A DNA stretch of 64,000 nt from Candidatus Hermodarchaeota archaeon (GCA_048885525.1 JBHLLP010000008.1:47735-111734); one strand, 5' to 3'; positions 7,733 through 25,530 are shown, numbered from the stretch's first letter. A program made the numbers and translations. Notes: generated from the letters alone by a model not told the origin.

Positions 7733-7832
7733 CGCAGCTGATGGGATTTGAACCCATGAGTGCATTGCACACTGGCTTTCTGGGATAAATTCCGCTCCAA
7801 GCCAGCGCCGTACCAGGCTAGGCTACAGCTGC
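7733..7832 (-). tRNA. tRNA-Ser(GGA) with 17-nt intron at 37/38 (7778-7794)
   Basis: GCAGCTG/CAGCTGC acceptor stem, CTGGC-TT-GGA-G..A-GCCAG anticodon arm, long variable arm, GGTTCAAATCC T-arm; BHB central helix TTGG/CCAG. Confidence 0.93.
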
Positions 7833-16072: not shown

Positions 16073-16080
16073 TTTATAAT
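16073..16080 (+). promoter_or_regulatory. Probable TATA box of tRNA-Ile gene
   Basis: TTTATAAT 23-30 nt upstream of the tRNA 5' end. Confidence 0.45.
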
Positions 16081-16102
16081 AATTTCATATTTTCATTTAT
16101 TT

Positions 16103-16247
16103 GGGCCATTAGCTCAGCTTGGTTAACAAGTTTTTGTTGCTTGGTCAACAAGCGCAGGTCTTATAAATGACCATCGGACATACATAAAAAACATTTGTCC
16201 GAAAAAGTAAAAACCTGAGATCCGGGGTTCGAATCCCCGATGGCCCA
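16103..16247 (+). tRNA. tRNA-Ile(UAU) with two introns (D-loop about 16127-16148; anticodon loop about 16166-16211)
   Basis: GGGCCAT/ATGGCCC acceptor + A73, TAGCTCAG, CAGGT-CT-TAT-AA-ACCTG anticodon arm after splicing, CGGGG-TTCGAAT-CCCCG T-arm; 77 nt mature. Confidence 0.8.
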
Positions 16248-16405
16248 TTTTATATAAAGTATTTAAGTAATTGTTTCGAGATTTGATATATAATTCGTGA
16301 AACATCTATTTTACGTCTTTTTATATATACTGAGATAATATCTCTTTAAATGATGAGAATGAATTATTTTAAAATAAAGAAGAATATTTCTTGAAGGAAT
16401 ATTTA

Positions 16406-17209: not shown

Positions 17210-18574
17210 TTATTCTACTATTTGTTTATACGCTTTTTCAAATCTCTCGATAGCTAAAATGATATCTTTTTCTGATGCTCCGATTGCAGCATTCATTACA
17301 ATATAAGGGGTAGGATAACTACTACAACATGTTCCAAATGCATTTTCTTTTGGATTGTATACTCTTGGTCCCGTAACTCTTAAGTTATACAATGCTCCAC
17401 CAAGGGCATATAATTGTTTTTGATTCAAATTTTGTAGGGACAGTGCTACAGCAACTGGATTATAAATGTCAAGAATTCTCTCATTTATATCACCAGCGAT
17501 TTTTTTTAGTTGTCTTTCAAGTGTCTTACGATTTTGTTGCTGTTCTTTAAGTAGTTTTTGATAACCCTCTAATCCAATCGATAACATTGATATTAAGAAG
17601 TTTACTATTGGAGTAGCTGAGGCACGTCCAGCATATGATTCGCTGATTTTAATTATATTTTCTTTTGATGGTGATGCAATTACAGCACCACCAACTGGTG
17701 TGAGAAAATTTTTATCGGTTGATTGGATTATAGCATCTACTCGCCCGGCATCAATCGCAGATCTAATCAATTTCATCCATTCTGAACTTTGGACACCATA
17801 TGCATTAATAACGATATGAACAAGATCATTTTTTTGAGCGAATTTACTGATTTCTTTAATATCATCATGTTCTCGAGGAGGAAAAAAGCTGGTAATTGAG
17901 ATGATGGCAAAGCAGTTATCATTAAAATTATTTTTAATATGTTCAATTGGAATCCTGACCGCATCTCCAAAAATCTGTCCAGGTATAATCTTTGATTTAA
18001 GACCGATTAAATCAATCGATTTTAAGAGAGATTTATGATCTATTTGTGGAACTAAGACTGTTTGTTTATGATTTAAATTAGCTTTACTTGGATCTGATTT
18101 TAAAGCACTTAATGTTAATGATAAAGACATTCCGGTACATATTGGAACTACAATTGCATCCTTAATATTTGGTAATCCAGTATTTCTTAAAATATTACAA
18201 GCTAAGTAATTCGAAAGTGTATACATTATTGATGCACCAGGAGCTTTCGGTTGAGGTGCTGTTAGAAATCCGCTTCTTCCCACTCCATGGCAGAATCCTG
18301 ACGATGTTCTTAAATGTAATTTTGAAGCAATTCTTGCTTCTCGTTCCCCTACTCTAGCGGCATTACTATCTTTATCTGTATCCATATGCGAGAGAGTTTG
18401 AAGTAAGAATTCAATTTGTTCATCACTCCAAGGTTTATTAGGTACCGATCTTTGCTCAAATAAAACTTTTATTGGATTTAAAAACTCATTTAAAACAAGC
18501 TGGCCTCGATTAAGCATATTTTCGGGAATATTTGAGCTTTCAAAAAATTTAATAATTTTATTAAAGTCTACCAT
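17210..18574 (-). CDS. spcS: O-phosphoseryl-tRNA(Sec) selenium transferase (SepSecS)
   Basis: VGEREARI, HGVGRSG...QPKAPG, IDHKS, NAYGVQ, QSTDKNF (PLP Lys), YAGRAS; adjacent to tRNA-Sec. Confidence 0.97.
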   Translation of the reverse strand: MVDFNKIIKFFESSNIPENMLNRGQLVLNEFLNPIKVLFEQRSVPNKPWSDEQIEFLLQTLSHMDTDKDSNAARVGEREARIASKLHLRTSSGFCHGVGRSGFLTAPQPKAPGASIMYTLSNYLACNILRNTGLPNIKDAIVVPICTGMSLSLTLSALKSDPSKANLNHKQTVLVPQIDHKSLLKSIDLIGLKSKIIPGQIFGDAVRIPIEHIKNNFNDNCFAIISITSFFPPREHDDIKEISKFAQKNDLVHIVINAYGVQSSEWMKLIRSAIDAGRVDAIIQSTDKNFLTPVGGAVIASPSKENIIKISESYAGRASATPIVNFLISMLSIGLEGYQKLLKEQQQNRKTLERQLKKIAGDINERILDIYNPVAVALSLQNLNQKQLYALGGALYNLRVTGPRVYNPKENAFGTCCSSYPTPYIVMNAAIGASEKDIILAIERFEKAYKQIVE

Positions 18575-18607: not shown

Positions 18608-18700
18608 TGGCGGCCCTTGAGGGGAATCGAACCCCTATCCCTCCGCAGGATAGCTGGGTTTGAAGCCCAGCGTCAGAGACCACTCCAACCGTCAAGGGCC
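18608..18700 (-). tRNA. selC: tRNA-Sec (UCA)
   Basis: 9-bp acceptor GGCCCTTGA/TCAAGGGCC, 7-bp D-stem with 4-nt loop, GCTGGG-CT-TCA-AA-CCCAGC, long variable arm, 4-bp T-stem, G73, encoded CCA. Confidence 0.97.
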
Positions 18701-24111: not shown

Positions 24112-25530
24112 ATGGATATTGAAAATAAAATCCCAATACACATTGGATTATTTGGGCATATTGACTCTGGGAAGACAGCAATAGCAAAAGTAATTAGTGA
24201 AATAATTTCTACAGCTGGTATTGATGCACATCCCCAGAGCAAAGAAAGAGGGATAACTATAGATTTAGGTTTTACAAGTTTTTTGCTGGATAAATATCTA
24301 GTTACCTTAGTGGATGGTCCTGGTCATGCAGATTTAATAAGGATTAGTGCTTCTTCAATAGAAATTATCGATTGCGCTTTAATTGTTATAGATATTAATA
24401 AAGGGCCTCAAGTTCAAACGGGAGAACATCTTATTATGATCGAATCGCTTGAAATCGATAAAATCATTGTTATTCTCAATAAAATCGATCTTTTTACTGG
24501 AAACCTTGAGGTAGAAATAAATAAAACAAGGGAATTTTTTAATTCAACATCTTTTGGCTATGATGTTCCAATTTTTGCTATTTCAGCAAAAAAAGAAATA
24601 GGTTTTGAAGAATTAAAGATTGGGATATTAGAAATGATTAATTCATTGAAAATTGATAGAGTTACTGAAGGTGAGGTCATTATTCCCATTGATCATCATT
24701 TTCCAATAAAAGGTATGGGATCAATTTTAACAGGTACAATGTTAAATGGAATCTTAAAAATAAATCAAAAGCTCGAAATATTACCAGTAAAAGTATCCGG
24801 TAGAGTCAAAAACATTCAGATATTTCACCAGAATGTCGATACTGCAAAAGCAGGTGATAGGGTTGGGATTAATATAAAAAGATTGGATTTGAAAAAAATA
24901 TATCGAGGTTGTTATGCAACAAATAATCCTGATGCTTTTGAGTATTGCAATACTATTGAAGTAAAAATAAATAATAATAGGTTATTCAAACCAAAAACTA
25001 GTTCTGGGACTCAAGTTCATATTACAATTGGAATGGTAACTATTACGGGTTATATTTATCCATACTATGAATTGGATGGAAAAAAAATTCAAACTTCAGT
25101 TTCAAATAGAGATCAAGGATTTAAGGCAATAATTTTGTTCAAGGAAAAAGTTTTAATAAGAAAAGCAAGAACAATTATGTTGTTAAGTCGATTAGATTTA
25201 CCTCCAACTACCTTAAGAATATTAGGATCAGCAGTATTATTGAAGATATATAAAGATCCACCTTTACTATATAAACGCAAAACAAAAAAAGGCATAATTA
25301 AAAATCCAGACCACCCTCAAGGAATTGTCTGTGTAGGGTTAGCACAAAGCGTTACTGGTGCCAAAAAAATTGTTGGTAAAAGTTTAGAACATCCTTTTAC
25401 AAAAGTTTTAAACACTTTTGGTAGTAAAGGAGCAGTTATTGTTGGTATTAAAGAAATAGAAAAAAAAGTAAACAAGGGAGATCCCGTGTTTCTGAAAGAA
25501 TTAAGAAGTTTTCAACTAAAAAACATTTAA
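24112..25530 (+). CDS. selB: Selenocysteine-specific elongation factor SelB (archaeal/eEFSec type)
   Basis: GHIDSGKT, ERGITIDLGF, DGPGHADLI, QTGEH, NKID, IDHHFPIKGMGSILTGT, RLDLPPTTLRI. Confidence 0.95.
   Translation: MDIENKIPIHIGLFGHIDSGKTAIAKVISEIISTAGIDAHPQSKERGITIDLGFTSFLLDKYLVTLVDGPGHADLIRISASSIEIIDCALIVIDINKGPQVQTGEHLIMIESLEIDKIIVILNKIDLFTGNLEVEINKTREFFNSTSFGYDVPIFAISAKKEIGFEELKIGILEMINSLKIDRVTEGEVIIPIDHHFPIKGMGSILTGTMLNGILKINQKLEILPVKVSGRVKNIQIFHQNVDTAKAGDRVGINIKRLDLKKIYRGCYATNNPDAFEYCNTIEVKINNNRLFKPKTSSGTQVHITIGMVTITGYIYPYYELDGKKIQTSVSNRDQGFKAIILFKEKVLIRKARTIMLLSRLDLPPTTLRILGSAVLLKIYKDPPLLYKRKTKKGIIKNPDHPQGIVCVGLAQSVTGAKKIVGKSLEHPFTKVLNTFGSKGAVIVGIKEIEKKVNKGDPVFLKELRSFQLKNI

Follow-up and report, generated by a model that had tools for sequence, protein, structure and literature searches.

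A two-intron tRNA-Ile(UAU) gene as the probable AUA reader of a TiaS-less Promethearchaeia archaeon

In a 64,000-nucleotide stretch of the genome of Candidatus Hermodarchaeota archaeon (GCA_048885525.1 JBHLLP010000008.1:47735-111734; hereafter the window), we identified a 145-nt tRNA gene at 16103-16247 (+) which, on comparative sequence grounds, probably encodes the AUA-reading tRNA-Ile(UAU) in an archaeon of the Promethearchaeia (Loki-type Asgard) devoid of TiaS, its two introns being spliced out and its codon being read through a U34:A pair. We place the probability of this reading at about 0.85. Telling AUA from AUG is a task that bacteria solve with lysidine, most archaea with agmatidine, and eukaryotes with an intron-bearing UAU tRNA. 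A whole Asgard class appears to have dropped the archaeal enzyme TiaS and to rely on an intron-bearing UAU tRNA, which makes two questions testable in kin of the eukaryotic ancestor: how AUG misreading is avoided without TiaS, and whether the intron helps in anticodon modification.

The tRNA-Ile(UAU) gene and its two introns

The gene lies in an intergenic region flanked by two minus-strand ORFs without a Pfam match. Its sequence contains the features from which the original prediction started—an Ile-type body (GGGCC acceptor, A73) with a CT-TAT-AA anticodon loop, and a 46-nt anticodon insert bearing the hairpin TCGGACA/TGTCCGA. Exon 1 (16103-16125, +) comprises the 5' acceptor strand GGGCCAT, U8 A9, the D-stem strand GCTC and the D loop AGCTTGGTTA, and is followed by the 24-nt intron 1 (16126-16149, +), which separates position 21 of the D loop from position 22 of the D stem. 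Exon 2 (16150-16166, +) supplies the 3' D-stem strand AAGC, G26, the 5' anticodon-stem strand CAGGT and the loop CTTATAA, with the anticodon TAT at 16162-16164 (+). The 46-nt intron 2 then interrupts the anticodon loop (16167-16212, equally 16166-16211; +), and exon 3 (16213-16247, +) opens with the 3' anticodon-stem strand ACCTG and the variable loop AGATC and closes with the T arm CGGGG-TTCGAAT-CCCCG, the 3' acceptor strand ATGGCCC and A73; the sequence encodes no CCA at the 3' end. About 21-30 nt upstream stands a TATA-like element, TTTATAATAA (16073-16082, +), by its position a putative archaeal promoter, and directly 3' of A73 follows a TTTT run (16248-16251, +) that is likely an archaeal oligo-T terminator.

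Removal of the 24-nt and 46-nt introns in silico yields a canonical 75-nt tRNA-Ile(UAU), which ARAGORN calls tRNA-Ile(tat) and whose cloverleaf has a single blemish, C13-A22 in the D stem, a position at which most orthologues have U13-A22. Excision of intron 1 alone is enough for ARAGORN to recognize tRNA-Ile(tat), the anticodon loop being split by a 46-nt intron. These results confirm the locus as a genuine tRNA-Ile gene with a UAU anticodon and bear out the two-intron architecture that had been proposed for it. The two introns also hide the gene from standard finders: neither ARAGORN in default mode nor the Rfam tRNA model made a call on the unspliced sequence, and the Asp(gtc) parse returned by ARAGORN in intron mode was rejected as nonsensical, being built on a TTTTT/AAAAA stem. 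An essential tRNA is thus missed by standard annotation, so that in genome reports for these lineages AUA will look, wrongly, like a codon without a reader.

Intron 1 forms a strict hBHBh' motif, with the central helix UGGU/GUCA and the 3-nt bulges UAA and ACA. In gene positions, its helices are h 15-17/49-51, H 18-21/42-45 and h' 25-29/37-41 (CAAGU/GCUUG), and the motif predicts cuts after positions 23 and 47. A comparison of 33 distinct orthologues shows pairing in 128 of 132 cells of the central helix, along with conserved bulges. Intron 1 is missing in 4 of 56 distinct orthologues, and the D arm of the naturally intron-less L038 and L067 reads GCTC-AGNTTGGTYA-AAGC, exactly the predicted mature form, with the same 10 nt in the D loop followed by AAGC. 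It is these natural counterparts that fix the intron boundaries. RNAfold, applied to the isolated D region, favors two small hairpins (-11.9 kcal/mol) over the BHB (-3.8 kcal/mol), so that support for the motif is comparative and not thermodynamic.

Both splice sites of intron 1 are spanned by a 14-nt direct repeat, GCTTGGT(T/C)AACAAG (window 16117-16130 and 16139-16152), each copy of which forms a near-palindromic hairpin. The repeat could bear on the origin of the intron, for instance by local duplication. The repeat (GCTTGGTYAACAAG) also suggested a 22-nt excision, which we rejected in favor of the 24-nt BHB excision because it would leave a 12-nt D loop, a form that occurs in no intron-less orthologue.

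For intron 2, the earlier reading of the sequence had found no strict BHB, and our analysis agrees: the 5' side of the motif is correct and the 3' side is relaxed. On the 5' side, U33-U34-A35-U36 form a helix with GUAA, which lies at the intron's 3' end (gene positions 59-62/105-108). All four pairs are standard in 35 of 35 distinct orthologues, the changes within this helix—A/G opposite U33 and G/A opposite U36—being wobble-compatible. The 5' cut falls in the bulge A37-A38-N, the third base of which varies among A, U and G. One to three pairs lie beyond this bulge, U:A in 34 orthologues and G:C in one in which both sides have changed, and the pair that follows is, in most orthologues, G:C or G:U. 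The 3' side has 2 unpaired nucleotides, with C32 unpaired opposite, and since this is not a strict 3-nt bulge, the motif has to be described as relaxed. The canonical 37/38 BHB register does not pair and was discarded. Helix geometry instead places the intron at 38/39, and the geometrically coupled 3' cut after gene position 110 generates the 7-nt loop CUUAUAA; owing to the flanking run of A, a 37/38 description yields the same product in this gene.

When the anticodon stem is enforced in RNAfold, the best fold consists of the anticodon-intron helix together with a hairpin (-11.5 kcal/mol). The unconstrained prediction is a competing hairpin, GGUC/GACC, at -15.4 kcal/mol versus -11.5 kcal/mol for the BHB-like fold, and this hairpin displays the anticodon in its loop. 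The internal hairpin of intron 2 (16174-16180/16196-16202) covaries among the orthologues, its strands appearing as GGACA/TGTCC, GATCA/TGATC, AGTCA/TGACT, GAACA/TGTTC and AGACA/TGTCT. Two further motifs, unrelated to the splice helices, are conserved in the intron: UGACC (16168-16172) and CAUACA (16179-16184) in this gene, corresponding to UGRCY and CAKACA across orthologues. CAKACA occupies the 5' side of the hairpin loop and is 94-98% conserved per base, while UGRCY is able to pair with G29-C32, giving rise to the competing hairpin.

Introns of archaeal tRNA genes can carry guide RNAs, as in the Haloferax tRNA-Trp intron, a box C/D guide. Guides of this class combine a box C (RUGAUGA) and a box D (CUGA) that together form a K-turn, and in H/ACA guides a hairpin that holds a pseudouridylation pocket is followed 3' by an ACA box. 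Neither class describes intron 2. UGACC varies to UGGCC and so loses the GA expected of box C/D, and the conserved ACA sits in the apical loop, on its 5' side, not 3' of the hairpin. Every anticodon base is moreover paired in the BHB-like fold, and with the defining features of a guide absent, an intron-borne guide was rejected. A different role seems doubtful to us, though conceivable: the anticodon-pairing intron might be kept beyond the needs of splicing, with UGRCY, CAKACA and the GGUC/GACC hairpin serving an intron-dependent modification of U34 and/or U36. By analogy with eukaryotic tRNA-Ile(UAU), the candidate modification may be pseudouridylation, which would block the reading of AUG. 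If this were true, the eukaryotic intron-dependent route to an AUA-specific UAU anticodon would already be present in Asgard archaea.

Distribution of the gene, TiaS and the meaning of AUA

Searches of relatives and of 185,579 species genomes recovered 56 distinct full-length orthologues, distributed over several genera of Promethearchaeia (Loki-type). The matches among the species genomes were mostly MAGs titled Promethearchaeota or Promethearchaeia, together with some titled only 'uncultured archaeon' and a few titled Hodarchaeota or Thorarchaeota; some bacterial records look like chance matches. The loop CTTATAA, which was part of the search pattern, is invariant in 56 of 56 distinct orthologues, as is A73. 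The set contains nine acceptor-stem variants, each paired 7/7, along with three T-stem pairings and three anticodon-stem variants, all of them paired, and such fully paired variants point to compensatory substitutions.

The number of introns per orthologous gene ranges from one to four. All 56 genes have the anticodon intron, 44-55 nt long, and 52/56 have the D-loop intron, and additional introns occur as a second, earlier D-loop intron (19/56) and a variable-region intron (11/56). Since a gene had to show an intron-sized gap or the opening bases of the intron to be retrieved, sampling accounts in part for the universality of intron 2. When 101 family genomes were searched with a short gap, no intron-less orthologue was detected, the only match being an unrelated compact tRNA(UAU) in one MAG. 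In f5 and in the sister family, f2, pattern and BLAST searches aimed at a UAU tRNA returned only chance matches, Lys tRNAs and one Ile(GAU).

Compact intron-less tRNAs(UAU) of a different build, bacterial- or virus-like, were seen in two places: one in a single family member (L107; G126:C80:12400-12720), and a second in one TiaS-bearing Asgard genome (L085; G245:C1, around 387289-387344). Both may be mobile-element tRNAs that supply AUA decoding.

The Pfam domain TiaS_FLD was not found in this genome (G000), which is 99.3% complete, while the same search matches 4 of 4 control archaea. As a query we took the 439-aa TiaS of another Asgard genome, which has the full set of four TiaS domains; it retrieved nothing from this genome at E<=1. 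In tblastn, this query and a further Asgard TiaS produced only weak OB-fold/zinc-ribbon matches. The tiaS search named as a check on the original prediction therefore came out negative by Pfam family, by Asgard TiaS protein and by tblastn. The pattern extends well beyond this genome. TiaS was detected in 0 of 41 relatives, in 0 of 91 members of its own family and in 0 of 15 genomes of families f2 and f4-f7, giving 0/106 across the families (f1, f2 and f4-f7) whose genomes are marked as belonging to the same order or the same class. Nor was it found in f8 (0/4), f17 (0/14), f18 (0/3), f21 (0/2) or f25 (0/2). Among Asgard genomes overall, 156 of 301 have TiaS, and most other families are nearly always TiaS-bearing, so loss of the enzyme in Asgard looks clade-wise and repeated.

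AUA is a common codon in this genome, at 35.9 per 1000 codons (3.6%), which amounts to 34% of Ile codons and exceeds AUG. We examined its meaning in SecY, comparing 23 AUA codons with the aligned residues of five TiaS-bearing Asgard orthologues. Ile is the aligned residue in 43% of cells for AUA, 45% for AUU and 46% for AUC, as against 17% for AUG; Met is aligned in 2% of cells for AUA and 2% for AUU, as against 26% for AUG. AUA positions align with Ile/Val/Leu in the same way as AUU/AUC positions do, and as judged from these alignments AUA is shown to stand for Ile in this genome. In two TiaS-bearing Asgard genomes, L077 (G046:C1) and L078 (G077:C1), the SecY match falls into two pieces approximately 110-200 nt apart that share one long open frame, and these lineages may carry an insertion in SecY.

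The proposed route to AUA decoding and its alternatives

Because many tRNA genes of this genome have two or more introns, our tRNA inventory is incomplete, with several expected isoacceptors not located. A stringent anticodon-arm scan for CAU tRNAs found only the initiator (C32:9579-9686) and one elongator-type gene (C10:74749-74855); loose whole-genome scans for CAU/UAU arms gave hundreds of chance matches, and only the stringent scan is informative. Given the incomplete inventory, a tRNA-Ile2(CAU) could have escaped if an intron lay within its anticodon or immediately ahead of it, and the search for a separate tRNA-Ile(CAU), likewise named as a check on the prediction, is to that extent only partly answered. 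tRNA-Ile(GAU) is located at C28:42387-42460. No AAU tRNA gene was seen in this genome, and with it the eukaryotic-type partner tRNA-Ile(AAU to IAU) is missing from the set.

Several other features of the tRNA complement emerged from this survey. At least 10 tRNA genes carry an AT-rich insert of approximately 25-35 nt that interrupts the T loop immediately behind TTCRA: C1:36004-36144, C1:48971-49107, C4:53220-53322, C4:52089-52192, C6:74976-75107, C6:23152-23256, C16:28952-29115, C16:58703-58853, C17:26157-26334 and C32:33612-33763. A scan based on the T arm overlooks them, and in the ARAGORN/Rfam lists they are missing or misparsed. Within the window, a tRNA-Ser(GGA) with a 17-nt anticodon-loop intron (7733-7832, -) is matched by Rfam and not by default ARAGORN. 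Just downstream of tRNA-Ile(UAU) lies a selenocysteine cluster consisting of SepSecS (17210-18574, -), tRNA-Sec (18608-18700, -; 63.6 bits in Rfam) and, of the archaeal SelB type, an elongation factor (24112-25530, +).

In the route that we propose, the gene would be transcribed into a primary transcript with two introns, both of which the archaeal splicing endonuclease would excise. Asgard EndA has been described as an (alpha-beta)2-type enzyme with an L1 loop, a feature linked to a broad substrate range (PMC5829648), and the two EndA paralogues encoded in this genome (C2:50632-50856 and C9:105848-106096) are consistent with that broad-specificity type. RtcB, which is also encoded, would join the three exons into the 75-nt tRNA, CCA would then be added, and IleRS would charge the product. 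An unmodified UAU anticodon is expected to misread AUG, and some modification of U34 would presumably limit this. With no TiaS and no detectable tRNA-Ile2(CAU), the single-copy tRNA-Ile(UAU) would have to read AUA by U34:A pairing, and it seems to be the only AUA reader here; tRNA-Ile(GAU) would read AUU/AUC, and the one elongator CAU tRNA would read AUG. The evidence assembled supports decoding of AUA by a UAU anticodon, and not by an agmatidine-modified CAU, as the likely arrangement.

The body of the tRNA offers a clue to its origin. Few CAU tRNAs turned up when five TiaS-bearing genomes were searched by pattern. The best matches of the mature tRNA in five TiaS-bearing Asgard genomes include two CAU tRNAs, with 80% and 76% identity. 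Both have Ile-like acceptors (GGGCCCG... and GGGGCAT...) and A73, and one of them has a 47-nt anticodon-loop intron. Identity to the tRNAs of its own genome is 72% for Ile(GAU), 68% for the elongator CAU and 67% for the initiator. A body closest to CAU tRNAs with Ile-like acceptors makes a C34-to-U origin the likeliest, and the comparison, which has two comparators only, suggests that an ancestral tRNA-Ile2(CAU) underwent this change, with the loss of tiaS following or accompanying it.

Other readings of the same locus have to be weighed against this one. The 46-nt insert contains CAT triplets at gene positions 70-72, 77-79 and 81-83, and the original prediction had accordingly allowed for a splice that uses one of them to yield a mature CAU tRNA (tRNA-Ile2 or tRNA-Met), a possibility to which the unstrict 3' side of intron 2 lends some room. 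The triplets are indeed present, but no CAT position is conserved across orthologues, CCATCGG becoming CCTATGG, CCGTCGG or TCTTTGG, and this makes a CAU-yielding splice very unlikely. In addition, the anticodon stem and CTTATAA form a block within the 5' exon that is identical in every orthologue examined, no BHB can be drawn around a CT|...|CATAA junction, and in the absence of TiaS a CAU tRNA-Ile could not read AUA. We give similarly little credence to a decaying, unspliced tRNA pseudogene. Two introns, the C13-A22 mismatch and the failure of standard finders are what such a relic might display, but 56 distinct orthologues keep A73 and have all stems paired through compensatory changes, the helices of both introns are conserved, a TATA-like element and a T run frame the gene, and the search turned up no other decoder for AUA, which accounts for 3.6% of codons.

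A change in the meaning of the codon is another conceivable departure, given that AUA stands for Met in many mitochondria. Here the UAU tRNA would be charged with a residue other than Ile, and all that speaks for it is that a U34 tRNA could in theory read AUG as well as AUA. Against it stand the SecY positions, at which AUA behaves like AUU/AUC and Met is aligned in 2% of cells as opposed to 26% at AUG, as well as the Ile-like body with A73, and we regard reassignment as vanishingly improbable. Somewhat more room exists for an undetected tRNA-Ile2(CAU) that shares the reading of AUA after modification by an enzyme unrelated to TiaS or TilS, as a CAU gene whose anticodon is split by an intron would go unseen in our scans, and the inventory is incomplete. 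Such a second reader is still improbable: the TiaS domain is found nowhere in the class, and the closest tRNAs in TiaS-bearing Asgard genomes are CAU tRNAs, which fits replacement better than coexistence. TiaS-less archaea with UAU, all known, are moreover without tRNA-Ile(CAU) (PMC3239211). Decoding by the spliced tRNA-Ile(UAU) as the sole AUA reader remains the reading that we prefer.

Relation to known AUA-decoding systems

With the TiaS/tRNA-Ile2(CAU) system of most archaea, the gene described here shares the task of reading AUA and not AUG, and its body resembles Asgard CAU tRNAs with Ile-like acceptors. It differs in having U and not C at position 34, and in that neither the genome nor its class yielded a TiaS domain.

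TiaS-independent decoding by tRNA-Ile(UAU) is already known in other archaea, and our literature search found no paper that links Asgard archaea with TiaS or reports TiaS-independent AUA decoding in them. A 2026 preprint (bioRxiv 10.64898/2026.10.13.758758) describes Asgard tRNA genes that are heavily interrupted, with introns in the D arm that tRNAscan-SE overlooks, and two EndA paralogues in most Asgard genomes. Our gene agrees with that account in its multiple introns, in a D-arm intron that standard finders miss and in the two EndA paralogues; Ile, UAU, AUA and TiaS go unmentioned in the preprint.

Bacterial tRNA-Ile(UAU) is known from Mycoplasma mobile and from a Bacillus subtilis tilS-deletion suppressor (PMC3575796, PMC3919564). 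The likeness lies in the reading of AUA by UAU after loss of the C34-modifying enzyme, and the bacterial genes are intron-less.

Among archaea, Nanoarchaeum equitans and Candidatus Korarchaeum cryptofilum have tRNA-Ile(UAU) and are without TiaS and tRNA-Ile(CAU) (PMC6000648). The same holds for ARMAN, whose pre-tRNA intron is cleaved in vitro by the endonuclease (PMC3239211). These archaea resemble ours in being TiaS-less and in having a tRNA-Ile(UAU), often with an anticodon-loop intron. In contrast, the trait appears here to extend over a whole Asgard class, the anticodon intron measures 44-55 nt and has a relaxed BHB, and the genes have two to four introns including a D-loop intron, or a single one where the D-loop intron is missing. 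The Korarchaeum gene, furthermore, resembles a copy of its own tRNA-Ile(GAU) (PMC6000648), whereas the gene studied here is closer to Asgard CAU tRNAs.

The likeness to the eukaryotic tRNA-Ile(UAU) consists in a UAU anticodon dedicated to AUA and in a gene that always has a loop intron pairing with the anticodon. Work in yeast established that the pseudouridine modification of the eukaryotic tRNA is intron-dependent. The anticodon of the cytosolic tRNA-Ile(UAU) of eukaryotes is Psi-A-Psi (PMC8879553). The suggestion that this lineage may decode AUA in the eukaryotic way stands in one respect, in that UAU would read AUA where TiaS was not found and AUA means Ile, and has to be qualified in another, in that the partner tRNA is the archaeal GAU. 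As the same trait occurs in archaea not close to eukaryotes, the phrase is best taken as naming a resemblance, and not a demonstrated shared mechanism. Collectively, the system described here would join an AUA-dedicated UAU anticodon of the eukaryotic kind to splicing of the archaeal BHB type, with GAU in place of an A34-to-I34 partner.
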